A stretch of DNA of 62,037 bases, counting the filler, from Perkinsus olseni (taxonomy: Eukaryota), in assembly GCA_013115125.1 (NCBI GenBank). It is 3 parts of 3 records of this genome, joined end to end, with 100 filler letters (N's around TTAATTAATTAA, not from the genome) between each part and the next. Parts side by side here need not be neighbours in the genome. Positions count along the whole stretch, not along the records: positions 1 to 20,655 come from JABANN010000571.1; positions 20,756 to 41,408 come from JABANN010000572.1; positions 41,509 to 62,037 come from JABANN010000574.1. One strand, given 5' to 3'. Below, one piece after another: positions 13,127-61,399 of the stretch. Numbering within the stretch: position 1 is the first letter of the stretch; each line of letters starts with the position of its first letter. The notes beneath the pieces are model-generated. The model was not told where the DNA came from. It searched no databases and saw nothing but the letters and a program-made list of their open reading frames with translations. A program made the position numbers and the translations under genes.

Positions 13127-14246
13127 TCATGCTTCCTTCTGATTTTTATCCCATACTTCGCAGTGCTTTCTCTGGCACATAGCGACCCCCAGCGTGAATA
13201 AGTTGACAGCGATCAGCCCTCCGCCAGCGACAAGATGCGACTTGATGTCATCGAGATCGAACGCCACTTGCAAAATCCTCTGCGCGACCTCTGAGGTAGA
13301 GAGAAGAACAACCGCTACATTCTAATCTTCATAACGAGCAGTCTGAGTCGTAGTCGTGACGAATGAATAGAGCGAATACGGGGGAGAGAACCCGAGGCTG
13401 TCCAGATGATCATTCTCGTGACACACTACAGCACATTTATACACAGTTACACCCCTGCGTCGCCAGAGTCATGATCGCATCTTTGACCCGAACCCAGTGT
13501 GGTTCTCCCTGCCCTGAAAGTTACTGAAATAGAGGGTTTGTACGACGGCGTAGCTCGGTAATGTGAACTTCAGGATAGCCTTCAAGCTTCCCTTCGTCAT
13601 ACGATACCTGTGGGGCAAGCAAACCGTGGGAGAAGAAGAACCTGACATGTATTCAACACTAATGAGTCATTAGTAATGACCGACGGAGTGAGTCAAGCAC
13701 GGCGAGTGTTGCGAGACCCTCGACACCGGTCCTAAACTTACGTGAAGCCGTACATATGCCTCAAAGCAACCCAGACGGCCCCGCATGTAGCCGCAAACCC
13801 TGGTAGTCCACAGAGTGCGCAGAGCCACATGCTAAAGAGCATATGGTTACCTACGAGGCTCATGGCTGTACAGCCGCTCACTACGGACACGTCGTTTCTC
13901 CCGCCAAGTCCCGAGAGCCGAACTCGAAGACGCACAGTCGGGGCGCAAGAATCTACCATACTGTTCTCAGCTTGATTCATATGCACCCTCATGGCCCGAC
14001 GCAGTGGATCCGGCGCCCCTTCGGCTCCTTTCGGGAAGCCCCACTTGAAGTAGTTGCCTGATTGAACAAGATGATGAAACATGATGTTACATGGGTCTTA
14101 CGACTGGCACCAACGCAGATAGCGTCAACCATTCCATATTGTATCAGCCATCCGATGGTAACCGCACTGGGAGCCCAGAAAGTTTTGATGAACTCAGTAG
14201 AGAAAGTGTCCAGGTTAAGACGCCCGTTAGCCGCCAGGATAGACAT
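13127..14246 (-). CDS. MAPEG-family membrane protein (microsomal GST-like), copy A
   Basis: Spliced MSILAANGRLNL...GASRNYFKWGFPKGAEGAPDPLRRAMRVHMNQAEN...AATCGAVWVALRHMYGF...WDKNQKEA*. The RxxRxHxNxxE motif and TM spacing are typical of MAPEG. Confidence 0.75.
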
Positions 14247-14969
14247 TGTTGCACAAGCACTATAAAGATGGAGACCAATTGATGTGTTCTCGTACGGCGG
14301 AAAAATCTGCGATCACAGTTTGAATCGGGCGGGGATGGCCGCGCGTCGCACCTCTCGGATGCTGCACATCAGCCAACCGAATGACATTATCATTCACAAC
14401 CCAGAGGCTTCCCTCCAGGGAGTCCGATGGAACTGATGAGGGTTAGAGTCATCATAGACGCCTACGACTTCACGTGGCTGCACGCAGCACGCATGCACAA
14501 AGAGAGGCAACGTCCACTACTGTATGCTCAGTCGCGCACTACAACTCAGTACAGCGTGGAGATATAGGAGAGGGCATAAAGAAGTGTAAATCCAGCTTGC
14601 CGCAGTGACTACGGCGGGATGTGGTGTGGAAGGGCACGGCGCGAAGCCACGGTCAGCAGTGGTTATCGAGGCCTACTCTAAGAGGACTGAGCAGAGGCCC
14701 GAAGCAGAATTGCGCTCATCCACCTTGAAGATAGTCCGTGGACATAAACCCAAATACTGGAGTATAAGTCTGATAGGACCGCGCTGTTGAATTGAGCAGA
14801 TCTTAAACAACACCCCAACATCATTGTACGAAGGAAAAAGATGCTTAAAGCTATCTATGTGCCACTAAGGCACGAGAGAAGTGTTCTCGGGCCTAGTACG
14901 TCGCATACGGCTGTTGAGGAGGATTGCACCTCCGACGTAATCGTGCCGACGTCCAATAAAAAATCCTGT

Positions 14970-16110
14970 TCACTGTTCCTTCTTCTGGCTCTTATCCCAT
15001 ACTCCACAGTGCTTTCTCTGGGATATGGCAGTGCCCAGCATGAGCAGGTAGGCAGTCAGGACCACTCCTCCAGCACCGATGTAGGACTTGAAGTCATCGA
15101 AATTGAACGCAACTTTTAGTATCCTTTGCGCGATCACTGAGAGGTGAAGAAAAAGCGTAATGATGGGCGTGGGTTAATGTACGAGTACGAGTATTTCTTG
15201 TGAGTAAGACACTGAAAATCACCCCCCCCGGAGAATCCAGAAGCGTGGAAATAATGATGGCAATGATTAAGGAGTACCTTCTAAGGGAGATGGTTTTGCG
15301 ATCAGAAGTCCCAGTGGTAAACGACACGGCCCCTTCACAGCCGCACGAGACTTCCACGGCGGTTCAATCAACTGCGGGCCCAAGTCACTCCGCTCCGACC
15401 AGCCCAGTCGTTACTGAAATAAAAAGTCTGCATGATGACGTAACTGGGGACGGTGAACTGCAGAATGCCCTTCAAATTGCCCTTCGTCATACGATACCTG
15501 AGGGACAAGAAATAGTGACAGCAGCCCGGCGCGAGAACACCGCCCATGGCAGGACCATCGGTGATAGTGTCACTTCCATTGGCGATCGTGAAGGGTCATC
15601 CAAAGCGGAGTTGTGGAACTCACTTGAAGCCGTACATACATCTCACCGCGACCCAGAGGGCTCCGAAGGCACCGGCAAACCTCGGCAGCCCACAGAGTGC
15701 GCAGAGCCACATGGTGAAGAGCATGTGATTACCTACATGTCAATAGAGCGCCATGCCCAACTCGCGAAGGCATTTGACGCCGATGAAGGACTCCTTCAGA
15801 AGGAGGCCTATCTTACTGTTCTCAAGTTGATTCATATGCACTCTCATGGCCCGACATAAAGGCTCTGGTGCGCCCTCGGCTCCCTTGGGGAAGCCCCACT
15901 TGAAGTAAGTACCTGGGCGTACGAATTGAACCCCCTTCCCCTTGCCAGAGTCTCATGGGTCTTACGACTGGCACCGATGCAGATGAAGTCTATCATGCCG
16001 TATTGTATCAGCCACGCGACAGTGACCGCAGTGGGAGCCCAGAATGCCTTGATGAACTCGGCAGAGAAAGTGTCCAAGTTCAGATGCCCGTTAGCCGCCA
16101 GGATAGACAT
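14970..16110 (-). CDS. MAPEG-family membrane protein, copy B
   Basis: Tandem paralogue of copy A with matching intron positions; RAMRVHMNQLEN motif; ends WDKSQKKEQ*. Confidence 0.75.
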
Positions 16111-16648
16111 TGTTGCACGATGACTGCAAGGCTGAAGAACTACCATTCGATTCGCTCGTGTTTCAGATGGAAAACGCCGGCGCGACGACGTTACGTTCTC
16201 AGCTACCAACTGGCTTCCCGTAGAATAACTTCGAGTCTAGAGTTAGCCTCCTTTGTCTACGCTAACCCTACAGGAGATAACGTAGACAATACGTCGGTCC
16301 AGCCCTCCCTCTCGGGCGACACGACAGGGCGGTGAACGAAGAGGCCACCGATCGGGGGCCCCTTCAAACCTGCCGTCACACGATCGATGATCCGTTCGTA
16401 TTCATGGGCCGCCAGAGGTGCTGTCTTTGTCCTTCCGTCACACCTTGGCTGAGAGACCATCAGTGACTTGCGGTCCGCCACTTGCGCGCCCCAAACTCAA
16501 CGAATGAGATATATTCCCCTGAGATCTCGTGGATCAACCATGCTCATCAGTACTACACGCAACGATAGACAACTGTTCTTCCCCAGACAGTAGTGGCAAA
16601 AATAGAGGAAGGATGGCGCGAATAACCCCCGTACGGAACTTCATCAGA

Positions 16649-16720
16649 GTCGCTATCGTCTAGTGGTTAGGACGTCACGTTGTGGCCGTGACAACCCCGG
16701 TTCAAATCCGGGTAGCGACT
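16649..16720 (+). tRNA. tRNA-His(GTG) copy 3
   Basis: Identical to copy 1 and runs into a T-tract. Confidence 0.95.
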
Positions 16721-16853
16721 TTTGCTGCGGCCTGCGCGATTGGCGAACCTAAATCCTAGGATACACCAATCTGCCTTGACTACGGCTTGGCTCACACCTA
16801 ATCGTCCCAAACCTAAACTCAACGACCAGTGCGACAGAAACAGCAACCGTAAT

Positions 16854-20755: not shown

Positions 20756-22146
20756 TGTGCACACAATATAACACAGCATCTCTCCGCGCCGGTTTTAACC
20801 TAGATAAACTACTCGTTTATCCGCTGAAGAGAAAAAACGCGATGTGATATAATTTTGTGGAAGGGTTCATTTTTCAACTTATCTTGGCAAGCGAAGTACC
20901 CTCGCGGGGTATAAGCGAGTGACCGGCGGCTCCATCGACCCTGTTGACTTGTCCCAGTCCGTATCCCTGACCTCATACTGGACGCCGTTCTCACCGTAGT
21001 AAGTCAAGAAGTCACGCCGATCAGTGCTGCCAAACGCGAGCGCTCTTCGATGCTCGGTCACGCACTAGAATCGATCGGCGAGGGACCCCCTTCGGCCGAC
21101 GACGAGGTTGTGAGGACGGTCGTTTTACTGCGAGAGAGCGAACCACTTTCCGATCTTCAAGCTTCGTGTCACACGAATCGTGTGGCTCCAGGAAACCATT
21201 AGAGCTTGGAAGAACCTTGCCGGGCTGAGACAAGTCATAAGATATACAATTGTGATAGATCATCATCTTTGAAACACAGTCTACGAAAGTAACCGAGAAT
21301 AGGGGTAATGAAGACCTTGAGCTCGCTACGTATTACTCAGTACGGCGCGCCATATACAATGATTGAGGTATTGCTTATAGCACGGTGCTATTAGCACCAC
21401 GCTGCCGCTACTACCTGTGTCCGCATTGACGAGGATCCACCGCTGAATGGATCCTGGAGCCGAAGTACTCGCAAATATCAGGCGCTCAGGGATGATCCTT
21501 TGTACGAGGACCAATAGCTCCTTGCAGAGAGTCCGTCTCTAGCCGCTCTTGGATACAGGGCATGCTCATCTGAGAAACTCGTGAAATCAGAAGACTAGTT
21601 TCGGGTACGAACTTCGGCGTTGAAGAATTAGACTATTTTCGACACGCTCATCTCCAAATCCGGTAGCATTAGTGTGCGAGCTGCCTCTATAGCTTGCCGG
21701 ATACACTCGTTCTTCTTTTCCAGATCGTTGCAAATGCGCCGAGGATCAAAAAGGCGAAGCCAAGCTATTCTTTTCACAAAGCGGTGTTTCCTGATGTAGG
21801 AGATAGAGCGACCCGCGCCACTCAGAGGTGCAAGTCCGAATAGCAGCGCTACCTTTTTCGAATCTCTCGTATAGCTTCGCCAAGAATGCTCTCAGTGTGC
21901 AGGAGTTGATCAAAGATACCATCTACTCTGCATACAGCATCGAAGAGAGAATAGTCCGCTGCTTTCAACTCGGAGTCTGCAGCCTCAATTTTGCTGATGA
22001 TGATGTCCAAGGCTTGCTGCATCTCTGAGAGGCAGTCCATACTCAGGGGGCTTTGGGTATCCTTGTGGCCTCGTAGGCGGGTTCCGCTCGTTCGGGATCT
22101 ATACTGAAACGGGAAAGTTGCACTGTCTCAGCCTGGGACATATACG

Positions 22147-22680
22147 ATGACGGGCGAAGCTCTCGATAAACTTGTTGAACTGGGCATCGACCTCGGTCAA
22201 GTTGTCGTTATTTTTGACGGAGCAGCTGCTCATGGAAATTTTCATCAAGTTATTGAGAATAAGGGGCGCCATTCCTCTCAAGTTAGGGCCGTACAGCTCT
22301 GCTTTGAATGCGATCGAGGGAGCCTGGACAGTCATTAAGAGCCAAATTCGGCAAGAGATGGCGGAAAGGGTGCCTGAGTTGGTGGCAGGCCCACCTGGGG
22401 GAGGGATATCTATGGTGAGTCTCTGCGATACGGTAGCTGCTCTTTTGCTCTTCTCACAGTTTCTCACTGTCAGACTCCCACGTGAACATGTGCGATGCTT
22501 CATCTCGTTTTAGGCAGAATTTAGGATGCAAGATATGGCAAGAAGACACCGATATGCCGTAAGTTACGGCCCGTAACTATCCCTACAGCCGGCGGCCTCT
22601 GTGCACATGCGATTGGGATGTATGGAAAACACGTCCGTTGGTACATAGAATTCTGTTTCACACGCTGCATGATACTGCAT
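22147..22680 (+). mobile_element. IS630/Tc1-like DDE_3 transposase fragment (frameshifted)
   Basis: VVVIFDGAAAH is followed, in another frame, by LGPYSSALNAIEGAWTVIKSQIR (PYSPxLNPIExxW motif). Confidence 0.75.
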
Positions 22681-22907
22681 ACATACCATGCCTCGTTGTC
22701 AACCGCTGGTGGCAACCACAACTTGTGGTCCACAAGTCACCAGATGCATGCTAAGAGTTTCTTCTAACATAGTACGTCGCATATCTTGGCGCGGGTGTTC
22801 GCTCGCCCTCCAAAATTGAACTTACTAAACGAGAAATAGACCTTTAAAAGGTGTAGTTAAGTTAACTAAGTTAACCATTACATAATCACCATTAATGACT
22901 TATTCAG

Positions 22908-23492
22908 TTACTCGACTGCCTTCGCAGAAATGATCTTCTCCTGGTCGCAGGCCTTGATGACGGTCACAATGACGGTCTTGCCCTCGTTGAAATCGTTCTG
23001 GATCTGCTGACCAACTTCATCAACACCACTTTCGTTCTTAGGAAGGTCCATATCGTCCTTGGTGGTACCGTCGTCGGTAAGAAGAGAGACGGCGCCGGAT
23101 TCCTCGATGTTCAGCAGCTGGTACTCAGCGCGAACAACATTAGGGGCCTGACGACGAGCACAAGTGGAGACAGATTTTAACGCGTTAATGCTAAGGTTTA
23201 CCTCCATGTTGTGAGAAGTGGGGCAGATATCCTCATACTTCCTTCCCGTAAAGATATCGAGGCCCGTGATGTTAGCCTTAGCGTGTCCGTGTTTGCCGGT
23301 CTTAGAGGTGGAGATGTCCACAATCTTGCATGGCTTACCTGATGGAAAGAGTAAAAACTGATAGTAAAAGAGGGAAGACTTACCCTTGAGCATGACGAAG
23401 CCACCCTTGCGGAGGGTACCGGCCTGCTGAGGGGCAGTATGGGAGGCACCGGCGTCGGCCTGCTCGAAAGTTGGCTCGTCTTCAGAGGACAT
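22908..23492 (-). CDS. eIF5A: eukaryotic translation initiation factor 5A
   Basis: STSKTGKHGHAKA hypusine motif. ATG at 23492; introns at 23339-23383 and 23148-23201. Confidence 0.97.
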   Translation of the reverse strand: MSSEDEPTFEQADAGASHTAPQQAGTLRKGGFVMLKGKSSLFYYQFLLFPSGKPCKIVDISTSKTGKHGHAKANITGLDIFTGRKYEDICPTSHNMEVNLSINALKSVSTCARRQAPNVVRAEYQLLNIEESGAVSLLTDDGTTKDDMDLPKNESGVDEVGQQIQNDFNEGKTVIVTVIKACDQEKIISAKAVE

Positions 23493-24559
23493 ACTTAAGC
23501 GGCAACACGGAGGAAACAGCACACCCTTAAAACGACCATCTAATCCACACACGCCCTCAACCTGACGATAGTCTGTGTACCATGAACGAAGTGGCGAGTC
23601 GCTCCTCCCTTCATAGCGCAAGGCTATTGGGCCTGCAGAAGGCACACCTTGTAATCGATCGCGCTACTCACGAAAGCGCTCGCCACAAAATTACCGAGAT
23701 CATTTCGCTTCATGGGGGGTCGGACTCTGCGACCCACAATCTTGGAAGTGAATTTCACCTTCTTAAAATCCATTCAGACTCGATTCTCTAGTTTCAGAAC
23801 TAGTTTACTGACAGGGTGCCCGTCACAATCTACTCAACGCGATGAAAGGCGCGGACCGTCGACAAATGGCCGCTGTCCCCAGCAGCCCGTAGCAGTTGTT
23901 ATTTTTGCTGAATGGCAGTGGACTTGGACCGAGTCCGCGGTCGTCGACTCTCCTATAACGTGACCATCGTTCCTTTATCGTTGGATGGTAAATCGCAGAC
24001 CGTGCAAGACGTAAGCGCACAGAACCGGGCACGTGGAGCCGACCTCCTCAGCTCCGGGCGTTCATACACTCTTTGCCGTTCGGAACGTCGATATACACGG
24101 CCCGAACGCCGGAAGAATGGGACTACTGTATTTTACGGGAAGAACAGCCCAGGCTGGACACCACCCTGAAGGTTTTCTCACACCTTTACCGGTGCTGTTG
24201 TCGCCGTTTCGCCGACTCGCATGACATCTTGTCAGATCGCGAGAAGGCCTGTCCATCCCCGGGCAGATCAATCGGTTCTTTTACAGTAGCTGCTGCCGAG
24301 CTTACGGACGACTAGTGGGGGAAGATCTCCCTGAGCATCGGGTAAAACGGTGAATCGCCAGCTGCAGAGAAATCTTAGTTCGCGCGTGGATTGGCCTCGA
24401 AAGCCGTTATTCCTCACAACCAATTCGTCGAGGGCGTAATTCGCAAGTTCCATATGTTCGTCGACGATACTCTTATAACGGATACCTGTTATGGGTAATA
24501 AGATTTTGAGACGAGGAAAATTAATAATGTATTGTTCAACATCGGAGATGTTAGTTTTA

Positions 24560-25200
24560 AAGCGTTGAGCAATGGTTACCTGATTGTATTACTTTATATA
24601 CATCTATTTACTATTAATACATTAGTAATCAAACTACAAATTACTAGTTCTAACTAGCCTTCTACAACTACTGTACATAATAATACATAATAGTGATCAT
24701 ACTAACCAATAAATATTATTGCATCATTACATCAGATAATTAAGTATTATTTACTTAATTATTTTTTTTCTATTTACTATAATATCATAGGCTTGAGATG
24801 AATATATCAACCATTCGGGTCTGTAGTACGCCCCATCCATATTTATAAAGACACCTGGTTGATGAAAATAGGATTTAAGATGCATAGACGAGGACTGTTA
24901 ATTTTACGCGAGTGACTGTATCACCATAATACGGTGGAATAAACGTGCGAATTAGTTGTTGTTCTGGTACTGATGATAAGTATCTTATTTTAGACGGCAC
25001 GGCTGGTTGCAGCGCTGAGCGGCGAATGTGGGTATTGCCCATCCCCACTGGCAACAACTTGGCGATGGTTTGATGTCTTCAGGAAGACCGGACTTTATAG
25101 AACTCCTGATGACGGTAGTAAGACGACGGGTTGATGCGATGAGCTCGGGCTCCATCCTGTATTGGGAAGTCTCTGTGAGCTTCGAGTTGAATTTTATCGG
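24560..25200 (-). mobile_element. possible Penelope-like retroelement relic with AT-rich tail
   Basis: RAHRINPSSYYRHQEFYKVRS and FIPPYYGDTV resemble the PLE RT C-terminal RAxRIC...E and LPY motifs. An AT-rich block lies at 24560-24790. Confidence 0.4.
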
Positions 25201-25430
25201 AGTGTAGTCGATAGAATTGATTACACAATCGTTGTTCTGAGCGTAACGAGAAGCAGAATGAATGAACCGTATTGGAGCTTCAATTCTATGCTGTGGGGAA
25301 GTCCCGGCCTACTTCCTCGTGGCCGGTGGTAACAGGCCTCAGCACCAATGCTATCCGCGGGGTGGCAATGACGCCTGACCGCTGGGCGGTCTTTGAGCGA
25401 GAATGAGTAATCGCCAGAATTTATTACACA

Positions 25431-26010
25431 ATGCGTCGTTCCGAATGTAACGATTGTATAATCAGATGTTTCGCGTGTTTGTTGTTGTTGTTATCACTCA
25501 GAACACCCTTCGTACTGCATACAGTCTGAGCAAGAACAGAAGGACACTCGATGGCATCTCGAGGATTACGTCTACAGCCAGAGGAGATTCAGCCAGGAGG
25601 TGATTCTCATCGTTGCGGGACTGATCGGAATTCTCATTCTTCAGCCACCGGAAGTGCGGCAGGCTTATCGTAACTTCGCTAAGGACGTCCTCTGGCGGCG
25701 AAACGACGAGGGTGATCTCAAACGACTGAGCTACGAGTTGGACGAACTGGAGTGGAGAGAGGGTCGTAAATCTGTTGTTTTTGTAATGATCTCGCGTGTT
25801 GTCGGTTTGCCAAGGAGAGCGTCGTGGGCAGGTCCAAGCTGACGCGATGGACTTCCTCTGTGAGAACGCCGGGACGCAAGGCAAAGTCACGACTGAGCAG
25901 AAGTCCGCTCGAAAGTCGGGTATGGTGTGGTATGGAATGACGAGCAAAAATTGTTATTTTTTTCGTAGCTTATCCGCCGGGTAATGCGCTGCTTCTGAGC
26001 AACTTCGCTG
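25431..26010 (+). CDS. hypothetical small multi-exon gene, model uncertain
   Basis: Exon-like segments bounded by GT/AG (e.g. AYRNFAKDVLWRRNDEGDLKRLSYELDELE). No family recognised. Confidence 0.3.
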
Positions 26011-39934: not shown

Positions 39935-40053
39935 GGACACAATTGTCACTAGGAAAAGTGGCTTAGCCCTCAGGGTTACTGGAGGCTCAGACATCAGCCC
40001 GATAGGCTCGGCTATGGAGGTTCAGGCAACGACTTCACTGTGAGATTCACAGT

Positions 40054-41400: not shown

Positions 41401-41408
41401 AGGACCTC

Positions 41409-45596: not shown

Positions 45597-45654
45597 CAGC
45601 AATCATCAGGAGCGGCCGCGTCGCAGCAGTTTATCGCTCCAAATTCATTCGCTG
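45597..45654 (-). promoter_or_regulatory. SECIS element (type II)
   Basis: CAGCGA AUGAA UUUGGAGCG AU AAA CUGC UGCGAC GCGG C CGCUCCUGA UGAU UGCUG: AUGA/GA core, AAA 11 nt after the core and an apical mini-helix, about 90 nt after the stop of the UGA-containing ORF. Confidence 0.88.
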
Positions 45655-45743
45655 AGTGAACGATTTTCCCACACAACAGACGAGGAGAAGAGGCACAGAG
45701 CGCATTAGTAATTCTATCCACATCAACACGTTAGATTATAGGG

Positions 45744-46556: not shown

Positions 46557-46929
46557 GGACTACGACAAAAAGAACGCTCTCTCAAAAGCTTAACTGAAAG
46601 CAGAGTCAAGTTCTCGATAATGATATTACAAGGCCACCAATGACTTGTTGGACTACGACCGTTTCGAGCATCTTCTGAGTGCTGCAATTGTGCGCACGCC
46701 AAAGATTATCTGAGAGAGGTTAGCGCCCGCCCGCTGTCACCACACTAGTGTAACACAAAGCAATCTCGTGTAGGTGATAAGAGCTCTATGACATACGTCT
46801 GGCCAACTGCGATGATGACCATCATCTTGAAACGCTGGTCGAGCAGCACTCTCAGTTACCAGACTCCTACGCTCCTCTTCTTCAGCCTTCTCTATAGTAC
46901 GACTGCCGACGATGACGTATGGCATTATT

Positions 46930-47078
46930 TTAATAGGGATTAGATCGGCCCGCATCACCACTTGAACTCGCGCCTGTTACACAAGACTGCCAATACAATT
47001 AGAGTTAGCGCTGGGGTACCTCCTCCCGCCGAATAGGACTGCTGCTGGGTCTGCTGAGCCTCCTGAGTCTGCTGAGGC

Positions 47079-47109
<31 letters not shown>

Positions 47110-49005
47110 GCTGTTGCTGTTGGTTTGCCGCTACAGCCATCGCTGCATAATAAGCAGCGTAGCTGAACAATAGGCTTTAACTCTATAGCACAGTCCGTCA
47201 CAACACTCACGGATCAGCCATCTGGCCGCCAGCCTGCCCTCCCTGCTGAGCCTGGAGGCTGCTGTAATACGCTGCGTAGGGGTAGTATGCCCTGAAGGAG
47301 GGGACAACTTCGAGACCCCCGAGACTATCTCATAGTACGCCTGCTGAGCCGCCATGCCTGCCCATCCCTGTTGCATGGCCGCTTGGCTGTAGGCATCATA
47401 GCCCTGAGGCTCGGGAGACTGCGGAAGAGAGGAGTGTCACAATACAGCGGTTAAAGCCGGACTAGAGACGCTGAACCCAATACTACGCCCCAGCCTCTGC
47501 CCTTCCCCTTTCCGCTGCCATCAGAGCCTCCCTGCCGTTGGGAATTCCGCACTTCAACCTGAAAACCGCCAATAAAGAAACCACCACTCCCGATGGTACA
47601 AACCCATCGACCATCGATCATATTATTCCCGTTGATAGCGGCGTTGACGGCATCCTCCGAGTCGAAGGTAACGAAACCGTACCCCTTCGATCGGCCAGTG
47701 TCCCGATCTCGCCTGAGGTAAGGCAAATGCTCTACACAGCGGAATGGAGGCTCCCCGAGGCAGCGTACATAGCTATGCAGTCGACGATGTTGCCGTATTG
47801 GGAAAAGTGCTGATGGAGACGCTCTGAAACAGGACCGACCCCTGCTTGCTCGGGAGCGAAGCATTTGAGCCCTAGATCAAGATGCTACAACAACCAACCT
47901 GTATCGCACTCCTGCGGCAGGCCTCCACAGAAGACCTTCATGGGGTCATCACCACCACGACTGAAAAAAAGAGGAATAACATTCACCGCGCAGACCCTAG
48001 GTAGTACCGAGCTGGACCGCCGCTCCTATCACCGCCATAACCTGACAAATATGAATCAAGGAGAACGCAGCCCACATGCATGTTGTAGAGCTATGCGGAC
48101 GATGACGAGCTGCACACAGGCAGGCTCGCGAGAGAAGTCAACCTCCCAAGCGACACGGGTTTGCTACTGTCATGTAACGAAGAACTCATTACCTCCTCTG
48201 TGGGGATCCTTAGGATCTTGTGATCGGTTAACATCCACATGTTTGCCGTTCAACTGATGTGGGCCGCTCGCGAGGCAGTTCTGAAGATACTACGATCTCA
48301 CTATGACACTGGTCTTCTCTGAGTGCGGTCGCCACTCCCGCGCGAAGAAACGTGATCCCCCGATCATCACTACCTCCACCTCCCCGCTGGTAGAATACGT
48401 TACAAATCCGAAACCTCGGCAGCGACCGGTCATCTTATCGGTCATAACGATCGCTCGTTCGACGTGTCCGAATTGTGAGAAGTACTGATGGAAGGCGTCG
48501 TCGGTGATACCCTCAGGTATACCACCAACGAACAGTTGCTGAGAAGAAGCGAGCAATGCTGCCAACTCGTGGACAGCTAGTTGAGCGACTCAAGCACTGA
48601 AACGGCCCAGTCGAGTTCACTTGCAACACAGGGCGATGCTAAACATACCGAGATTAGACTCACGCTTCGATCTTCAGCTGCTCTATCGCCATACTGACCG
48701 CCATAGCCCTGATAATAACTGTAATATGGTCTCTGCATAGTGAACTTACACCCGAACTGAAGGATGGCCCTCCTTGCTCGGCAGCCTTCCCGCCCAGCTG
48801 ATTCGTCAAGGATGCTGCAGTTTTAGCGGCGATCGCGGCTGCAGCAGCAAAGGGATCCTGCTGACCTAAAGGTTGGACAACAACGTTTTCTCCATGCAAA
48901 TCTTCAATACATTATCAAAACCTTCCGGACCGTACCTTGCGAGCTGCCCCCTGCGGCCGACTGAGGAGGCCCGGAAAAGTTACTGCCAGGGTAATTAGTA
49001 GCCAT
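46930..49005 (-). CDS. two-RRM RNA-binding protein (hnRNP A1/Musashi/DAZAP-like) with Gln-rich tail
   Basis: RRM1 LFVGGIP...RGFGFVTY and RRM2 KVFCGGLP...KGYGFVTF. It has a polyQ tract and ends GRSNPY*. Confidence 0.88.
47078..47121 (-). repeat. (CAA/CAG)n polyglutamine microsatellite
   Basis: TGT/TGC run on the + strand, inside the RRM gene. Confidence 0.9.
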
Positions 49006-51206
49006 TGATATCTTCTAACTCAGCAAGGCTGATTGAACCTCATCCGATCGACACATTCCCCGATTGAGCGCTGGGACCTGCTGCCTCGTGCAACGCTCCA
49101 TGACGGGGCCCAGTGTTATTCCGTCAGGGGCCGCGTGAAAAAGACTGTGGTGAGTCAACGGATTTCACGCGGGAAGCTTTGTTGATAAGCATACCTCCTA
49201 GAACAGTCCTAGAGCGGAGGTAGCGCCTACCGGGTCCAGGCTCTCGTCGTGGTGGACATTCTTCGCAAATCCAAACTGTATGCGAAGAACTCGCGCCCGC
49301 CATGGCGAGCGATTCGACAAAGTGTTTCCATCCCTGCGCTGCGTCTATTCCTAATTACCCCAGTCTATTATCAGGCCCATTGCACTGAGCGATCGAGAAT
49401 CCGAAGCACTAACTGAATTCGAATTCCGCCAATGACCGCCTTAGATGAGTCGAACTTCGTCGGGGTGTCGGAAGTAACTTCAGACCCGTCTGAATGACTC
49501 CGTCGCTCGCTGGGAGTACATACAAGTTCACCAGTCTGGAGCCTGCTTTCTGCTCTCGGCTGCGAGCAGTTAGCGGTGGCTAAGCTGCTTGAACACCGTG
49601 TGCTACCTGTTAAGAAAGACTCCGTGTCCTATTGGACCGTCCACTTTGGACACACTTACAGCACTGGTAAGCGGTTGCCAGTGCTGTGATGTTGGCGTGG
49701 CGATTCGACGAGACGGAACACCGCATCAGCTGCTACTAGCGGGCCCCCGGGACTTTCAGAGTAAGAGTCGGTCCTCGATTAGTGAAGAGAAAACTCCATC
49801 AGCAAGATTGATTCTGAAATTTTCCCTGTATTAACAACGTGTAGACAAGTACTCGGTTATGAGATCTCTAGGTTAATTCGGGACTGTAAAGTGCAGAGTA
49901 GCGAACGCCGCCTCGCCGCGTTGACAGGGCAATATACCCAAGAGAACAGCACTTACATAAAGGCTCATCTTACTGATCACAACATCGTGGACGATAGCCA
50001 ACTAGTACACGTCGGCACGTTATTCGAGTGTATAACATCAGACTTCGTTATTCGAATAGTTTGACTCAAGTAGGATCGTCGAGCTCATGTGGCTCACGAA
50101 CTGCCGACGATCAATGTCGGAAAGATCGGCTGTTAGAAGTGAACCCGACTCGAGTTACCGGTTTGGTTGCCCCCCCCTACCAGGAGGCTCCGCAGTGCGA
50201 AGTTCGCACGTAATAGGCTAGCAGTGCTAGCACTACTCGATTGCATTCTTGCTGCTCCCTCGCTCAAATTTTAGTTGCTACATATGAGATTACTGACTTG
50301 CCCTGCGAATGGGGCCGCGATGGGTGCCGACCTCTGTTGTGTCCGCGCGAGCGCGTAGGACAGCGCATGAATAATTGCCGATCGTATGCATGTTATACGC
50401 GCTTCGGGAGGGTTTCCGAAGCCCTTCACACGAGGTGGTGTAAGTGTGCTGCTGACGAGGGCTGACTCAACCGCGCTTCCTTTCGTTATTGATGGCTGCT
50501 CCATCGGACTCCTCCTCCTGCAGTGATGCTTCTTCGTTGCCGAGCTACTACTGTATTGGTTCATCTATCAACACTGGGCGATCCGTAGAGAGCAGTAGAC
50601 AACCGGGGCTGGAGGTAGCTGATTACGAGCGTCCCCGTGAGGGTCTGGGACTGCAATTGATCACGAGCATGACTTCGTCGCTTTAGGCGTCCGTGTATGT
50701 GGGAAGGCCTGATCGAAGCCCTCTGCTGCTCCGAGAGTCCATGAAGTGAGGCTTGGGAATGGGGTAGCCCTTGTTGTGATGCATTCGGCTATAGAATTCC
50801 GAAGGTCGGAGCTGCCATACTACGAGACACATAGTATGAGTGCTCCTTCAGAGCGGTTAGCCATTCCAATGAACCTATGTTACCATGGCGCACGAATGAG
50901 GTCACCTGGCATCACATGGTATCTTTCGAAGTTCAACCTTCGCTCTGTGACCCCCAGACTGGGAGGGACTCGGATGATCGGTGAATAGCTCGAGGAACGC
51001 AATTAAATCTTGTGGAAGCCTCGAACTCAAGACTCACGAGACGGGAAATGATGAGCTAGTCAGAACTGTCGGTTGCCTTGGGAGGAGAGAAGTTAGCATT
51101 GAAAGGTACACCACGCAACAGTCGACCAGCGCATGCGATCTCTGAAATGAAGGGACAAAGAAAAGTTTGACATTTGACGAAATGAAAGATCAGGCTCTCG
51201 AATGAG

Positions 51207-52097
51207 CTAGGCTCTGAACCTAAGGCTCACCTCGTACAACGAAGAAAGATTGATGTAACCCCAGTGGGACACATAGTTCGCCGCCTCCACCGCAACCTCA
51301 CCGTAGTGATGTCTCACTGCGGAAACTCGTGCTCTGTTGCAAGCCCTCCTGCACACCTGAGCTATCCACTCTCCTCGCGCGCTCAAGTCGCGATGCATTC
51401 CGTAGTTGCCTCCTCCTGATGTGTCGTAAATAAGATCTGTTTTCAGCTTGAAAGTGTTGCTTCCCTGGCCGAAAAGTGAAAATTTGACCTCAAGGATAAG
51501 TGCGAAGGTCATCAAGTGCTCAGTTGCTGACGCATGTAGCAGGCATATGTACGGTAACTCCGTGACGTCGGCAAGAGGAACCCTGTCAACAATAGAGACT
51601 GTACCATCCTCGTTGACTGGCGTGTCGTCAAACCGTAGATGGACCAGAGTCCCCTCGAAAATATATATTCCCACCGAAGAGAGCTCCACCCCCAACCAAG
51701 GTGGATTGTTTTTAAGCAATAGGGATAAGGAGAAGTTGGCGTACTTGTTGGCGCCGTTGGGCAGATGAAGGAAATCTTTGGGCGGATCAGCCAACCACGA
51801 GGGTGCCGGGCCCAGATCAAAGCCTCGCAGCTCCATCTCCCATCTTGAAATACACGCTTCAATGATATAATTCTTGGAAACCATGAGCCCCAGGTTGAGG
51901 GCAGCGTACAAGGCCATGCCAGTCAGAATAAGGGGCATAACTATATGGAACGCCTTATCCCCGGGGGTTCCAGACTTAAAGAGACTGCCGAATGACGGAG
52001 GTGAGTTGAATGTATCCTCGCCAACATCAGCAGTATAGTCGGCGCTGTGTTGCCATACATGGGTGGTCTGCGGCAGGCATCGTTCGGTTGGGGGCAT
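51207..52097 (-). CDS. intronless single-TM protein of unknown family (LEA_2-like strand pattern possible), paralogue 1
   Basis: Open 296-aa frame. The start MPPTERC was chosen by alignment with paralogue 2. A TM segment is followed by NFSLSLLLKNNPPWLGVELSSVGI. Confidence 0.65.
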   Translation of the reverse strand: MPPTERCLPQTTHVWQHSADYTADVGEDTFNSPPSFGSLFKSGTPGDKAFHIVMPLILTGMALYAALNLGLMVSKNYIIEACISRWEMELRGFDLGPAPSWLADPPKDFLHLPNGANKYANFSLSLLLKNNPPWLGVELSSVGIYIFEGTLVHLRFDDTPVNEDGTVSIVDRVPLADVTELPYICLLHASATEHLMTFALILEVKFSLFGQGSNTFKLKTDLIYDTSGGGNYGMHRDLSARGEWIAQVCRRACNRARVSAVRHHYGEVAVEAANYVSHWGYINLSSLYEVSLRFRA

Positions 52098-55000
52098 AAC
52101 AACAAAATGGGGAACCACCCTGATCGACCACTTAGAAGTATTCAACGTCCTCGTCATTGCATGCCGATGATTGAAAGATGACCACGTCTCGTGTCAACAC
52201 AGATGGCCCTCCGAGAGAAGTCGGCCGGCGTTCTGATAACTAGCGACAGGCACGAGCTGATGAACGTCATAGCCCTTCGTAATACAAGCCTGAACGATTC
52301 CCTGCTCGGGGACAGTGCGTGCGTGCGGGAGCGGTGTCACGGTCGATGCCGGATGTTATTCGGCGTCAGCCACACGGCGAATGGCACCGCCTGTGGTTTA
52401 GCGCGGTCTGTCGCGCAGGGTATTCTTCATTATTCCACTTCCACAACCTTTGTGCATGGATTACTGTTAATGTAATACTGTAGCTGGGGCGTCCTTTCTC
52501 ATCAGCTTGGCTGGAGGTTCCAGCCAAGATCCAGCCGGGAACCCCCTGCTAGCTTCCCAGTTGTTGATGAGAGTCTATCGGAGACATGGACTTTAGGACA
52601 CCACAGGTTTCTTCGGCTGGCAGGTTGCCAGTGGCAACAGATCCCAGTGCCAAGTTTTTCAGACAGGACCAGTATTACCAACTGAGTTCAACGCGGGTAA
52701 CTCAGTGAGTTACCTTGACGGGAGCTGCTCCCGGGGAGCACTCCCAATTGATTGAAAACGAGGGGTCCCTGGACATTCATAAAAGAGTCCATATCATGAA
52801 TCACTCATGATGAGTGCAAGGGTCTAACCAGCGAGGACGCCGTCGGAGGCTGTTGCATGTGTGAATTTGAACACTGTGTGAAGGAGTGTCCTCAAAGGCA
52901 CTGAGATCGATGCGAGATATCGCCAGACTTCCGGCACGGCGGCTCCGGCGCTTCCTAGCCTCGCCACATGTCGCGCGGCGACTGCGATGATGTGACGCCA
53001 CCTCGGGTGGATAGGAGGCTCCCTTACGGAAGGATGGACTGGTCGTGGCCTTCAGCCTTTTGAACGCGTCGAGGAGCGGAGACGCACCACTGATGACAAC
53101 CTGGGACTTGAAGATGAGGGACCCGTCCGAGGATCTTCCACTTCAGAAGGAAAACCACGATGTGAGTAAGGTGCAGAGATTGCGTCTCACCGCTAAGGAT
53201 ATGCTCTTTGGCAGGTGAAGCTGGCAGCTGGGGGGATGTTAACTGGCGTGCAGGGAGAGGGCGAGACTGGTACAGGGTGAACAAACTGAGGTAGGCAGAG
53301 CGACAACTTGCCAATCAGTTTATCATGACAATGTGGTATCGTCAATATCCAAATTGCGATAGTCGTTTGTGATGTTGTAGCGCATCTTCCTGACCCGAGA
53401 TCTGCGTAACTATCATCTTCACTGCCATGGTTTATGAGCGTGATTTTGGGCCCGAACCTCAGGATTCGTTGCCTAGCCGAGCGAACTTGTCCTAGCAAGA
53501 ATAGCGACAAAGTCAGCAGAGAGAGGTGCTCGCGAATCGAATCGATTCGTATTGGACCATGTCGTTGCTTGACTATTCATGCACCTTCGCTTCTCGGAGG
53601 GCAACGCTTGGGCGGGTTGTAGTACGATTCTTCTCGCTGTTATGCGGAGAGTCTCAGCTCGTTGCATCAACCCCGGAGACAAGTCGAGTATCGTCAGAGA
53701 TCGGGCGGTCCGGTGTGCTCGTATCCGGGCACCAGGACGATCTACTACGGCGATAGGCCGACGAGGTAACAACGCACAGGCGGGACTTATGTCGGTGCGA
53801 TATCTCCCCGATGCGATGCATTCTCATAAAGCTGTCTGATGATTTCCCGGTCATCTCTTATCTTCGAACCTTGCGAATCACGTGCTCTTCGCTCGAGAAT
53901 CCACGTTCATTTGCGCACGATTTACTCGTGATGAGTAGCTCACAAGCGGTCATCGCTACCCAACTTGGGTAACCCAAGTCCCAAAACATTGACGAACATT
54001 CTCACAGTGATGTTCAACTCGCAGGTGTAGTTCGGAACAACACAGACGAGCGAGCCGCAATCTTTTCCCTGCTGAGGTAGTAGCAGCCCGCAGCGATTAC
54101 AGCGACTCAAGTTAGACTCAAGAAGAGTCACTCCAGGTTAAATCCCTATCTCCTATATCGAGTCGGTCGCGGCTCAACAGGTCAACGCTCCGCGGAAGAG
54201 TGCCCTTTAAACTGATGTTCGCTCAGATCACGGACATTGAACTCCGTCAGAGCATCACGAGGGGACCGCTCGCAAACTGCGGAAGGCTGTCATGGTAGTG
54301 TTGAATACACAAGAAGCGTCTTCCCAGCCGCTCACTGCAGGGAGGCAGCGCGGTAGAAGATCGGCCGCAGATCTGAGATCGCTTGTTCAGAATGTCCGCC
54401 AGGACCTCACCGAACAGGTAGCTTATCACGTTGGTCCTGGGTCGGCAGCCGTGGCCGTGGAACGCCAGATTCGAGCAGTGGAGAGGCGCCTCGAGGGCAT
54501 CGAGCAGGGTAGCATATCACCTTGAGTTCGGCAGGAGTGCACTGAGTAGATGACTGCTCAGACATCGGGACTGGCGGGATATCGGCGAAGGGGACCTTGA
54601 CGAGGAGCGGAGATCTGAAGGCAAATGATTTCTGCTGCGAGGAGGAAGCGCATGCCATCGACCTAGGGCGTACTCTCCAGGAACAGGAGGAGCGGGTAAA
54701 CTGCTCGTCCCAGACCGTAGTGGAGGTCTCGAGTATGATTTGTTGGCCAACCAAGCTTTGGGCATAGGTGCTCCGTCTAGTTGGTCATATGGTTGAGCAT
54801 CTGATCACAAGTGAAACACGTGAAGCTCGGATGATCAGAGAGGCGGCTGGGGTAGCGTTTGCTGGTTGCTCGCAAAGCGCGGTCCTCACCCACAGGTAGA
54901 GTCACGGTCACGTCCTCCCCAGGGCCAGCTTAAGGTAGTGACGGCGATCAGGCCCTGATCATCAGGGCTAGTCTTACCTCTCGGTACTCGTCAGAATACT

Positions 55001-55399: not shown

Positions 55400-56000
55400 G
55401 CGCCTTCGTAGTGTCGCTACCTCCCTCGCGCAGCGTGAGTGACCAGTATGACTCTAGCAATGAAAAATCGCCATCTCACGTCATCGGCAAGTGTAGCAGG
55501 CGGCAGGGCTGTCGAAAATCTCTCCGGCAGCAAGTTCCTTACTAAGGAACTTGCTGAAGGGGAGATAAGGAATCCTTGGGGATCTTTCGTGAGAGCGGGA
55601 ATATCGTTGCTATGGACGCACTGAGCGCAACTCCGAACGGCAGTGAGGTCGATCCGGTTCAATCGACATACCCCGGTTGGAGAGGCAAGATTTGTTCCCT
55701 ATGGATTGAAGATGATTTGTCGCGGCAATCATTATCCTCCGGTTGCAAAGAAATTCCAGAGGTTAGTACCCTCAGTGCTTGGAAGGTACGTTCAGTTCGG
55801 GAAGTTTTGAGAGAGGGTGTTCAGTTCTCACGAGAACACACTTGGTTAGGGCGCAGCGCCATACGCTTCCTTCAGCTTGCGGATGAGAAGGCGCCGCCGG
55901 GCGAAGATGGTGACGACACGCCGCATGAGGTGGACACTGACTTAGCGGATCTGGTAAACAAAAGCCGGCGAAACACTTCGCGATTTTATCGGTACCGGTA
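55400..56000 (+). mobile_element. possible Ty3/gypsy RNase H-integrase junction relic
   Basis: SGNIVAMDALS resembles GxxNxxADALSR. The surrounding frames are broken. Confidence 0.3.
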
Positions 56001-56568: not shown

Positions 56569-57453
56569 CTAGATCAGATCCGCGTCGTATAGCGAACCCA
56601 AGCGGATAGAGGTCGAAGACGATACGTCGTCTGACGCCAGTACTACAATCTTCCCGGTGTGATGCTCTGCCGTTGGCAATGCTTCCTCATAAATATGCTC
56701 TCTGCAACCTCGAGCTATCCACTCGCCCCACGGGCCCAGGTTATGATCCTCAGTGTAGTTACCTCGCAGTGATAGATCGTAAGTAAGATTTGTGCTCAGC
56801 TCGAAGGTGTTACTCTTCCGTCCAAACAATGCGAATCTGGCCTCGAGCACAAATTTAATAGCAAGCGTTCTCACCATCCCCGGCGCGTAGTGAAGGCAGA
56901 GGTACGGCACTTCAGAGAGAGCTGACAGAGGGACCTTTGCTGAAATGGAGATCGTACCCTCTTCGAAGGCCGGCGAGTCTTCGAGTAACAGATGCAACAG
57001 GTCTTATTCGAAGAATAATATTCCCACCGAAGAGAGCTCCACTCCCAACCAAGGTGGACTGTTTTTAAGAGAGAGAGACAAGGAGAAGTTGACGTACTTG
57101 TCGGTGCCGGGGGGTAGGTGAAGGAAATCCGTAGGTGGATTATCCAACCATGCGGGTTCTGGGCCCGTATCAAAACTTTGTAACTCCATCTTCCATCTTG
57201 AAATACATGCTTCAATGATGTAGTTCTCCCAAATAATAAGACTGATACTGAGGAGGACGTAGAAGGCTATGCCATGCACGATGAGTGACAAAATCACACA
57301 AAACACCTTATCTACAGAGACTCCAGATCGTAAGAGACTCCTGAGTGACGATAGCGAGCTTCGTGTATGCTTGCAAGCACCAGCCTCTGCGGTAAAGCCG
57401 TAGCTGTCCCGTTTATGGGTAGTGCGATTTTGACATTGTTGGATTGTGGGCAT
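56569..57453 (-). pseudogene. paralogue 2 of the 51207-52097 gene, with one in-frame TAA
   Basis: Colinear with paralogue 1 (NYIIEACISRW, PPWLGVELSSVGI). TAA at 57004-57006 replaces a sense codon and the frame continues to 56569. Confidence 0.7.
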
Positions 57454-58349
57454 AGAAAACTGAAATCATGTCACTCTATTCCACTCGAGGACCTTTCGGC
57501 CTCAGTCATGACGGGATGTAGTGAACTTCTCGTCTCGTTGTTGTCCCTGCCTAGCGGTCCCTCTGGCATCGCAGGTGTGTTTCCCGGAGGAAACCCGGTC
57601 GCCAAAAACCCATGGCCACCCATTGGTATACCAGTCCGAAGCCTGATGAGCCTAGTGGTAACAAGACGAATGAGACGCGTCATCTGAACTGGGCGGCCCC
57701 CCAGCAGGCACACAGGTGGCACTGCCAGTGGCAGCCTGCCACAGCACATGTAATCGGAGACAATCTCCGAGGCACGGGTCGAGCACGCGTCAACGGCCTC
57801 ACCAGCTGTGGTCTGGCGTCACGGGCGACAGTGCTGTCAGTAATAACAATCTCGCCGTTTGTATCAACGACACTAAACTCGCGGTATCATCGAGTGCTAT
57901 GTGAATGATATCTTCTGGCGTAAAACCGCGGAGCTCAACGTGGATTGAACAGGGAGCGAGAGAATGCCCCCTCCTGTGTCCATATAAGACGCAAGCTATT
58001 GAGCAGCTGGGTGCTACAGCAAGCTAGACAACTGTCCCATACCAGCTACCCGGCCTTTGAATTGTGGTGCTGATTTTATGACAACGTTGTGGCGCCTATG
58101 CGCTACGCAGGAGCTGCCACCTTAATCAGTACTACTCACCTGTTGACTATCATCGCTTCAATTACCTTTTCTGCTACTGCGTATCATTAGTCTCAAGAAA
58201 ACCGTCTGACCGGCTCACTATGCGCCTTGCGTTCGCGTGCATGAGAAATATTCATTGAGTACAGTATGCGTTCTAGGCTAGAACTTGCGCTAGGCTGGTT
58301 TTCGCTTTAGAGTCTCATTATCGATCAACTCCCCTCACTGAGGGGCCCT

Positions 58350-59011
58350 GAGGGTGTCTGAGAATCTCACCTAATTTTTCCGGCCACTATATTTTCTCGG
58401 AAAGTTTCCTGAATGAACTTCTCGAACGTGAGGAAATTTCAACGCCGGAGACCTGCTTCATCATCGTGCACAGCTCCTTAAAGCGTGAGATGGGTTCCTT
58501 CGACTCTACATGTGACGTCAAGACATGTGAAGTGGGAGGAACATAGCTATGTGTTCGGCCTGGTCTGCACACTGGAGCTGCACTGGTGGATTCTCCACAA
58601 TCCATAACTACGATCTGACGACATATGATATGTCACCTAACTCAAATTTAGAAATAAGTATTCCCATGGAGAACTTTTCCGCCCAAACCAGAATGTCCAC
58701 TAACTCGCAACCCTCGCAGAAGCATTTTGGAGAGATTGAAAAGCCCCTTTTCGCAAGACCTCTGAATCCCCAGGATTACAGGCTTCGTTCCAACTACACC
58801 GAACGGAGCCCTCGGTCCCGGAGCCCTATCGGTGTTCGCGAGAGGCTCTCGCCGAGAGTCGAGAATGCCTTGGACCTGGCTCGGAGCATCCGATTCGGCA
58901 TAGATACCGTTTTTCGCAAATTTCAGGAACTCACGGAAATTTCCGGAAAATTTCCAGGAAAGATTCTTCGGAAACTTTCCACGATTTCGGGGGTACTCTT
59001 CAGACACCCTG
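58350..59011. mobile_element. degenerate non-autonomous DNA transposon, hAT-like
   Basis: Inverted termini (g)AGGGTGTCTGA / TCAGACACCCTG with GGAAA/TTTCC-rich subterminal regions. No TSD was found. Confidence 0.5.
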
Positions 59012-61399
59012 TTTGCTTTGCTGACGGCACGAAATCGCGAGCTGAAAAATCGCTTCACTGAAAATCGCTGCAAATTGACAAAATTCGCTTCACTGGTCCA
59101 TGAGCATCCTAATCCATTCATCCTATTGGACCGTCCTTGGTTAGGAGCTCCGAATTTCTTGGAAGTCCCCGAACAGCCGGCATTAGTGACTAGTTCCCCA
59201 GCACTTCTGGGACGCGAGTGCTCCTAAGCGGGTGCGGGTCACGCACTGCGTGATGTTACATCACTGATGTGCCGTGCATCACGCTTTTTCTTTCAAGTGA
59301 GTGAATTAGTAAGGCCTGTCCAGCTGTCTGCACCAGCTGGATACGCAAATTCAAACAAGGGAGGAACCATTTACGGGGAGTATAAACGAGAATGCTTTCG
59401 AGGCTCAAAATTTGGGCTCCCGCCGTGAAGTCGATGAGCCAAGGGCACTTCGGAAGAAACGTACTCATTGAGCGCTCCCAGTGCCAATGGCAATGTCCGC
59501 TAGCAATGCCAAGTGCGGTCCGATTGCATGGCGAGGAAGTTGTGATGCACGATCCCATGGAACGCATACAGAAACCTGGAGAAGCTAATCTGAATCGTGC
59601 GCTCTACCGCGGGAATCGTAGGACCTCGTAGTCTTGCTATGACTCGACCACAGGAGGAGGCTGCTGCTGCTGCTGCAATGAATGAGCGTTAGGGACTATC
59701 CATGAGAGCTATGAAACGCGCTGTTCCATCCTGTGAAAGCGCTCAGCTCTACTCCCAAAGGTGCTACCAACGCCAATGTCAAGACTACAAATTTGCGCGG
59801 CTCTAGCTGTACCAGCTAAAGGTTGCTAGGCTAGACTTCACATGATCCTCTCGGAACCCAGGCGACCAGAAGAGAGTTTCTTCAAGACACTGCAGGGTGC
59901 AATGTGCCACAGCAGAGGCTCTCAGGTTGGAAATGGCAGATGAGCATCAGGTGAGCAACAATAGCACAAGAACATGATAAGGGGCATCATCAGTAGCATA
60001 CACGGATCGTGGCAACGTGCGTTGCTTGCTTGTCAAGAGCCTCTCGAGCTTCTCCTTGAACGAGCATTCACCCGTTCTCTCATCTACTTGCGTATAACGG
60101 ATTATACGTGTGATGCATGACACGACTATGGAATCCATAGTCGTGGAATCCATAGTATGGATGTGCAGATGAGGGCCTGTATGGGAGAATAGTGGAGGCC
60201 AGCGGCAGATCACGACGAAGCATGTCTCACGTCTGTCTGCTGTGCCGGCTACGCTGACGGGACCTCGGTTGCACCTCATAATGGATTGCGTTTCCTCTGC
60301 GTTTCTGTTGGCACACACAAAATGAGATTCTCATCGTGGACGTCGTCACCCGCCGTATAAGGAATGATAGAAACTTAAAATTAGCCTTCGTGAAAGTTTC
60401 GAATCCGACGCTGGGAACCGGTTTCATCAGTCTAGCACGAATCTATCTTGGTTCGCGAGGCATCAGTCTAGGCAAGTTCGTAGAGCCCGGAATGTCGCAC
60501 TCAGACACGGGGCACGACAAACCTGAGTCAGGTTACCTGACGCACTATCTTTTTCCCGCCCCCAACAGCTGCATCAATCCCCTCTCGACTAAAACACAAG
60601 CGGTACATTAAGACGTTCTTTCCAAACTGGTTAAATGTGTGAAGGATGTTTTACATACAGCAAGGCTGGCTAAGTTGTGTGGAGTTATTCAACATGTCAG
60701 GCCTGACAAGGCGAACAAAATGAATGCTATTAGTCTCTGAACTCGCTGAGACTCACTTATTAAGGCTGACTTTAACGGGTTACTGCAGCTTTACTCCCGA
60801 GTCATCACTGATGACCCGTCATTATACAGGGGCATCGGAGGGGAATGTGCGGGCTTGGTGCAACTCGAAGGTTGAACGCGCTGGACGGATGCCCGATGAA
60901 ACGGTCCGAGAAGTTGCACTAGATGTTGATGTATGGTGCATTATACATCGGAGTGCTCCTTCTTACGGCCGGACCCTGAGAACATCCTGTGACCGAGGCC
61001 AGATTTTTCGTGCAGTGCTAGGTTGTGCAAGTTACTGTGTGGACGCACATTCTCACAGGACTTCTACTCGTGTAATGTACTTTCTCAGTCTAGCCGGGCA
61101 AGATCGAAATCAGTGGGTCACTAGGGACGTAGTTTTCCGAAGCTAAATTGCCCAATTCAAGCTTTAAGCAACTCTCGGCAATGATGGCGAGCCACAACTT
61201 ACTCCGTGCCGGAAGGACCCCCGATGAGATTGGTATCCCGCCGCTCCAGCTGATCTGTGTTGCTGATGGCGTAATAGGTTATACTCCTACACATAGGAGG
61301 ATCGTCGCAGAGCTGCTGCTGATGTTGAATACCCTTACCGTTTGTTTCCTTATATGCCTTATCTCGTCAGCTATCGTAGCTAGTTCGTGAAGTTCCTCA

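Follow-up and report, generated by a model that had tools for sequence, protein, structure and literature searches.

Transposases of the hAT family cut the nontransferred strand first and leave the flanking DNA closed as a hairpin (PMC6900584), and excision footprints of this general family are known for Ac/Ds, as is the chemistry itself. Those described in PMC5873905 for plants, S. cerevisiae and C. albicans combine an 8-bp duplication with palindromic (P) nucleotides centred on the complement of the element-adjacent base and show microhomology at most joints; they are heterogeneous, with 28 types among 128 C. albicans clones and arms mostly of no more than 3 nt. Here we describe a 22-bp scar in Perkinsus olseni, found in a stretch of 62,037 nucleotides (the window) made of three contigs joined by N linkers (1–20655, 20756–41408 and 41509–62037). 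The scar reads N1-7 + rc(N) + N2-8, where N is an 8-mer and rc its reverse complement. Unlike the Ac/Ds footprints, it is a single two-sided product in which the inverted 8-mer is retained in full; it accounts for about 90% of detectable events and is fixed about once per kb of natural DNA. The pattern is real and abundant, and we estimate at roughly 0.8 the probability that it works like a hAT excision footprint. The open-access literature yielded no account of this scar for Perkinsus, nor of any hAT footprint that is uniform across a genome; yeast and Ascobolus papers may show the product as one class.

The window was scanned at different lengths k of the repeated unit, with five order-4 Markov controls as background. 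With one base lost per side, 25 exact scars were found at k = 8 and none at k = 6, 7 or 9–13, while counts at k = 3–5 equalled background and all five controls gave 0 at k = 8. In a grid of trims of 0–3 bases per side and k = 4–11, only k = 8 with one base trimmed on both sides stands out, except that k = 9 cells are also satisfied by k = 8 scars extended by one base. The original prediction, made from the same DNA, had named eight exact and six one-mismatch copies and expected a sharp peak at k = 8 against controls; all fourteen copies are present, the eight exact ones with correct coordinates and 8-mers, and the peak appeared within the window (25 against 0), with 17 exact copies that had been missed. 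From the first to the third contig the exact scars number 3, 18 and 4, and they are given below with their 8-mers (no strand is assigned to features unless indicated).

7928–7949, exact scar, GTGAACTG, in the inferred GT-AG intron 7896–7979 (from frame continuity) of the kinesin gene
13659–13680, exact scar, CTAATGAC
15784–15805, exact scar, TGAAGGAG
21163–21184, exact scar, TTCGTGTG
21377–21398, exact scar, ATAGCACC
22556–22577, exact scar, GCCGTAAC
22715–22736, exact scar, ACCACAAG
22854–22875, exact scar, TAGTTAAC
27753–27774, exact scar, CTCAGCTG
28632–28653, exact scar, CTTGACGG
32971–32992, exact scar, GATAACGA
33467–33488, exact scar, GGCCCTAA
37175–37196, exact scar, GTCACTTT
37256–37277, exact scar, ACTCCGCC
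37687–37708, exact scar, GTTCCGAC, within a 742-bp insertion skipped by one contig each of runs X7 and X8
38043–38064, exact scar, CTTGGGAG, crossed by an X8 contig with 1 gap letter only
38411–38432, exact scar, CCTGTAAC
38707–38728, exact scar, ATGGAGGA, outside the listed pieces of runs X1 and X6
38934–38955, exact scar, AAGTGTAC
39339–39360, exact scar, CCATTGCC, in a decayed non-LTR (long terminal repeat) retrotransposon
40283–40304, exact scar, GTAGAGAT, in a retrotransposon remnant; taken once, the 8-mer codes for C-R-D, as found in intact P. chesapeaki and P. marinus homologues
52719–52740, exact scar, CGGGAGCA
53957–53978, exact scar, TACCCAAG
54946–54967, exact scar, GATCAGGG
60520–60541, exact scar, AACCTGAC

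Scars were also tallied by their minimum number of substitutions, with overlapping sites removed, and compared with eight off-geometry controls for which the real sequence, masked, was used. Sites with 0, 1, 2 and 3 changes numbered 25, 25, 15 and 31, against 0, 0–1, 0–1 and 7–15 in the controls. About 65 sites are secure (at most two substitutions), and some 20 or more additional sites are decayed. The flatness of these classes suggests steady production rather than one burst. The decayed scars lie between 237 and 59890.

One-substitution scars start at 237, 11316, 12544, 17099, 18180, 28928, 29030, 30038, 32685, 33497, 35158, 35180, 35197, 40038, 40967, 41071, 50188, 51208, 52617, 52795, 57721, 58331, 58838, 59232 and 59250
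Two-substitution scars start at 4789, 11928, 12029 (overlapped by 12036), 38320, 38353, 39457, 49631, 50820, 50944, 52461, 53916, 56372, 58620, 59396 and 59869

Scar density ranges from 0 per kb (23001–27000 and 41509–49500) to 2.6 per kb (36801–41408); extrapolated from this one window, 0.8 per kb over about 42 Mb of contigs would give about 3x10^4 scars genome-wide.

The geometry of the scars is that of two overlapping hairpin remnants. A 1-nt centre between 7-nt arms was observed in 67 palindromes against 4.0 expected, no centre base in 4 against 2.9, and 0-, 2- and 4-nt centres were all at background; palindrome centres spaced 7 apart occurred 31 times against 0. At the 31 exact-core sites the apex bases are complements on both sides in 25 cases, and identical on both sides in none, which matches the Ac/Ds rule (PMC5873905) and suggests that the opened tails were 3' extensions; the alternative opening of the hairpins predicts N1-8 + rc(N2-7) + N1-8, and its both-identical apex is the class with 0 of 31. 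Zhou and colleagues reportedly placed the Hermes nick, in 2004, at an offset of 1 nt into the flank. In V(D)J coding joints and in Transib/RAG the host likewise opens flank hairpins into P-nucleotides, and Transib duplications are 5 bp long. RAG cuts at the signal-flank boundary (PMC6900584), and the untrimmed pattern counted 2 at k = 5 and 0 at k = 6–11 here. Hermes shares a flank hairpin, nTnnnnAn targets and subterminal repeats near the ends (PMC6900584, PMC4763223, PMC10368747). The scar targets show a loose form of this preference: across the 50 sites with at most one change, T2 or A7 fills 43 of 100 positions (p = 2e-5 against 24%), in agreement with the hAT-like preference proposed earlier, and the scar logo also has G/C at positions 1 and 8.

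If the left hairpin contributes N1-7 + rc(N) and the right one rc(N) + N2-8, overlapping the two by their shared 8 nt yields the scar exactly, so that joining through the inverted 8-mer would be the simplest account. Each scar would then record one visit by a hAT-type cut-and-paste transposon. Insertion would duplicate an 8-bp target N, as is seen here for an element at 39628–39934; at excision the transposase would nick each flank one base in, and the 3'-OH so released would attack the other strand, producing hairpin-capped flanks whose apex is the complement of the element-adjacent base, as in established hAT chemistry. Host enzymes may open these hairpins on the 3' side, no closer to the tip than 8 nt and in some cases 13–27 nt away from it. 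Long 3' tails would result, the left one reading N1-7 + rc(N) and the right one the mirror image of this. The tails could anneal by their perfect 8-nt complement, flaps would be trimmed, and two 7-nt gaps filled and ligated, for which a Ku/Lig4 route and a Pol-theta-type route are both candidates. The end product, N1-7 + rc(N) + N2-8, would carry a net gain of 14 bp, and such scars would accumulate steadily over a long time and be kept where a 14-bp frameshift is harmless.

The distribution over coding sequence bears on this last point. None of 50 scars lies inside six long host open reading frames (ORFs), where 4.6 were expected, a count for which the last 23 nt of ORF 51207–52193 were trimmed off. 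The statement of the original prediction that no copy falls in a recognised exon stands for these frames, with the qualification that the one-substitution scar 51208 overlaps the end of ORF 51207–52193; in addition, 7928 lies in an inferred intron, and 39339, 40038 and 40283 lie within decayed retrotransposon coding sequence.

The +14-bp product had been proposed as the single outcome. It is indeed dominant: the standard scar makes up about 90% of the detectable footprints, precise excisions and plain deletions leaving nothing detectable by the scan. It is not the only product, as the remainder keep longer inverted arms. In all, 90 palindromes have a 1-nt centre with arms no shorter than 7 nt, 79 of them in scars and 11 outside (controls 2–11), and three of these are long two-hairpin variants, each on one 8-mer (38066, 55542 and 60133; background 2/3000). 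Two one-sided palindromes were detected with mismatches allowed.

38059–38110, long variant with two hairpins on 8-mer TGGGAGCT, centre spacing 37; overlaps the exact scar at 38043
55518–55579, long variant with two hairpins on 8-mer TTCCTTAG, centre spacing 30, with 24 nt in the left arm
60126–60162, long variant with two hairpins on 8-mer CTATGGAT, centre spacing 22
38785–38833, one-sided long palindrome with 1-nt centre and 24-nt arms
28010–28064, one-sided long palindrome with 1-nt centre and 27-nt arms, decayed

Short NHEJ-type (nonhomologous end joining) footprints, with 0–3 P-nucleotides, were at background level in the window. Tandem duplications of 6 bp numbered 47 against 12.7, dropping to 19 against 11 after removal of microsatellites, and those of 7 bp numbered 8 against 2.9. 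The long variants suggest that hairpins can open far from the tip, and the standard scar is therefore best read as annealed long tails. As the putative cause of the uniformity we prefer such distal opening, for example without an Artemis-like tip cutter. The original prediction suggested repair dominated by microhomology-mediated end joining (MMEJ) instead of NHEJ. Loss of classical NHEJ (c-NHEJ), the obvious cause for this, is contradicted for P. marinus: Table S1 of PMC6635534 scores Ku70, Ku80 and Lig4 as present (1 each) in this sister species, with Artemis not scored, so that such a loss is probably not behind the uniformity.

A candidate donor is present in the window. Exact 8-bp direct repeats around 12-bp inverted ends (at most 2 mismatches allowed) delimit one element, and a relaxed search of the window returned only this one again.

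39620–39627, + strand, left 8-bp target-site duplication GGACACAA
39628–39934, non-coding element of 307 bp, bounded by terminal inverted repeats CAGGGTGGCCCA that match perfectly over 12 bp
39935–39942, + strand, right 8-bp target-site duplication GGACACAA

The element carries subterminal CCGGGAA and GGAAGAAT repeats and starts with CAGGG, which we take to resemble hAT ends. We regard it as a candidate non-autonomous hAT element, a label based on its structure. It interrupts the decayed non-LTR retrotransposon (39300–40670, with a CCHC ORF), which is also broken by several scars, 39339, 40038 and 40283 lying within its coding sequence, and which has intact relatives in P. chesapeaki and P. 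marinus (protein P0012 has endonuclease and reverse transcriptase domains). The end of the element is attached to other flanks in six contigs of run X7, and an internally deleted relative is present in runs X1 and X6, indicating a multi-copy family. The element end pattern had 0 matches in metagenome and viral contigs.

Sequencing runs were used to evaluate the authenticity of the scars. The stretch is present in eight DNA runs from two studies, and four of these were compared across 21100–41099: X1 (study P1), X6 (study P2) and the divergent X7 and X8, all as assembled contigs, one run possibly being itself the source of the window. X1 and X6 cross 17/18 and 16/18 exact scars without gaps, with 0–2 differences per piece. 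At the element site 39620–39942, filled in the window, X7 and X8 join 39618 to 39934, skipping 315 nt (307 + 8, with 9 ambiguous letters), as expected for a plain site, and no scar was seen there. Among the indels listed for X7 and X8 (163 further indels lie outside this list), two footprints fall on plain 8-mers of the window.

28966–28973, plain 8-mer GTGTGCAG, where X7/X8 carry a 12-nt insertion
40834–40841, plain 8-mer ATAGACTG, where X7/X8 carry a long two-hairpin footprint with 31 letters between joints

The insertion at 28966 reads as a scar minus 2 bases with 1 changed, and the footprint at 40834 as both hairpins, one opened about 18 nt out and the other about 13, with their ends joined. 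Gap arithmetic gives a net +14 at 34784–35008 in X7 and X8 (a piece that is 13% divergent and possibly a paralogue) and at 39280–39469 in X7, and a 14-letter loss in the X8 piece 36936–37282, which contains two exact scars. The scar at 38043, and those of 35158–35218 in one haplotype, are common to the window and X7/X8, so that scar formation spans the split. At 40283 the intact homologues read C-R-D and the scarred copy C-R-E, and proteins from two other P. olseni assemblies (P0010 and P0011) read through this scar. Paralogues within the window (13136–16138; 51257–52098 and 56595–57454) are about 70% identical, their alignments being too broken or short of the scars. The hAT-type flank-hairpin origin advanced by the original prediction is supported by the restriction of the signal to k = 8, the loss of 1 nt per side, the complement apexes, the T2/A7 bias, the element with its 8-bp duplication and the footprint alleles of the divergent runs.

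Several observations weigh against this origin. Among the indels listed, none shows an exact scar opposite a plain 8-mer letter by letter, and the skip of the element in X7/X8 is flagged "between: not known". In a frame test by deletion length on four retrotransposon scars, 14 was the best length at none, other indels intervening. Both T2 and A7 occur at just 8 of 50 sites, a looser bias than the strict nTnnnnAn of Hermes. A hAT transposase domain was found neither in 206 of 207 stop-free window frames of at least 85 aa (the remaining one meets an N run and was excluded) nor in the read-through frames of 38756–41155 and 57300–61949, the only regions so read; the 307-bp element could be the maker of the scars, as a candidate only. 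Finally, Ac footprints are heterogeneous, and the uniformity of the scars therefore needs an extra cause.

The alternative that survives best, although improbable, is that the maker was another flank-hairpin transposase with an 8-bp duplication, either a Mutator-like element (MULE) of the Muta1 kind or a relative of Dada, Kolobok or P, rather than a hAT enzyme. It is favoured by the fact that the scars here are tied to no transposase. Muta1 shares the flank hairpin and makes 8–9-bp duplications, but its inverted repeats exceed 100 bp and its excision was precise in more than 90% of the yeast events reported in PMC5499845, whereas scars with k = 9 number 0 here. Many Dada elements are present in P. 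marinus and their transposases are related to hAT and MuDR; however, Dada duplications are of 6–7 bp inside genes for tRNA or snRNA (small nuclear RNA), and the elements examined in that source lack terminal inverted repeats (PMC3706591). The element of the window has, instead, short CAGGG ends and an 8-bp duplication. The features examined do not fit either group: for MULE, 12-bp ends and no k = 9 or k = 10 scars stand against long repeats (>100 bp) and mixed 8–10-bp duplications, and for Dada, the scars use unrelated 8-mers and the four tRNA genes of the window are full length.

Only slightly less probable is a domesticated or hit-and-run hAT-derived nuclease that made most scars with few lasting insertions, possibly disabling mobile DNA. 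Scars outnumber elements about 65 to 1 in the window, their flat decay classes suggest steady production, they cluster in mobile-element remnants, and domesticated hAT proteins that make hairpin breaks exist, such as Kat1 (PMC4763223). Yet the scar presupposes an 8-bp duplication and hence a genuine insertion beforehand; an element that is filled and polymorphic is present, and selection against frameshifts explains the placement of the scars.

We consider very unlikely a transposon-free origin, in which template switching during replication or fold-back synthesis at breaks would create a forward-inverted-forward triplication. The scar geometry could be drawn as two switches, and the 60133 variant has a short re-copied stretch suggesting re-priming. 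Template-switch and fold-back events have no fixed length, however, whereas k = 6, 7 and 9–13 were all 0 here, and the T2/A7 bias with the fixed apex polarity points to an enzyme with an 8-bp stagger. A library or assembly artefact, which the use of assembled contigs rather than raw reads, one run possibly being the window's source, might favour, can practically be dismissed, as the same scars occur in the same places in runs from two studies, decay by substitution, avoid host ORFs and, at 40283, are read through in P0010 and P0011 of two other P. olseni assemblies.

Other features of the window were noted around the scars. The 742-bp insertion 37283–38024 is pyrimidine-rich inside and has a duplication of 5 bp, ATTTT; it is skipped by X7 and X8 contigs, carries one exact scar and is possibly a solo LTR. 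A remnant of a Tc1/IS630-type DDE_3 transposase (22151–22510, E = 8e-4) adjoins three exact scars. Each of the four runs has very high contig depth over 38440–38990, which in X6 reaches about 14,000 against about 84; this high-copy repeat contains repeated TAGTGTACGAG units and has no Rfam match. A short high-depth insert at 26968–27110 is flanked by a 13-bp direct repeat, shows numerous loose ends at 26981 and could be a fragment that was retroposed. At 58900–59100 a series of repeats, GGAAATTTCC-like and CGCTTCACTG, looks similar to the subterminal part of a further DNA transposon, and no element ends were found around it.

Among the genes, 11450–16721 holds tRNA-Phe and three tRNA-His genes, all four full length, with a decayed tandem duplication between them (unit about 1.86 kb) for which no homologue was found. 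The paralogous genes 51207–52193 and 56569–57465 are about 70% identical with no function assigned, and the one-substitution scar 51208 is at the stop end of the former, beyond the paralogue alignment. Homologue searches with ORFs 15164–15856, 40078–40380 and 11869–12246 gave no match. Host genes encode a GNAT acetyltransferase (1289–3049), a kinesin (4941–8400), eIF5A (22908–23663), a globin-like protein (43560–44243; ORF identity 95% in Perkinsus olseni, 82% in P. marinus and 78% in P. chesapeaki) and an RRM protein (47451–48589).

A broader scenario, which we put forward tentatively and hold to be rather doubtful, is that a low-copy or domesticated hAT lineage has long roamed Perkinsus steadily, and that a dedicated route of distal opening and annealing turns nearly every excision into a frameshifting +14-bp scar despite Ku and Lig4. 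If true, datable marks would number in the tens of thousands, and the lineage would act as a mutator across the genome and disable other mobile elements as well.

In conclusion, ordinary cut-and-paste excision marks vary and are unrecognisable without the element, so that past transposition rates are hard to read, whereas each Perkinsus scar identifies itself without a reference, gives its target 8-mer and holds internal mismatches that allow it to be dated. In a wild genome it thereby becomes possible to measure which targets are preferred, how the rate of excision changed over time and how hairpins were repaired, and the scars supply many +14-bp strain markers. That one repair product can dominate where the genus apparently retains c-NHEJ has a bearing on hairpin opening outside vertebrates.

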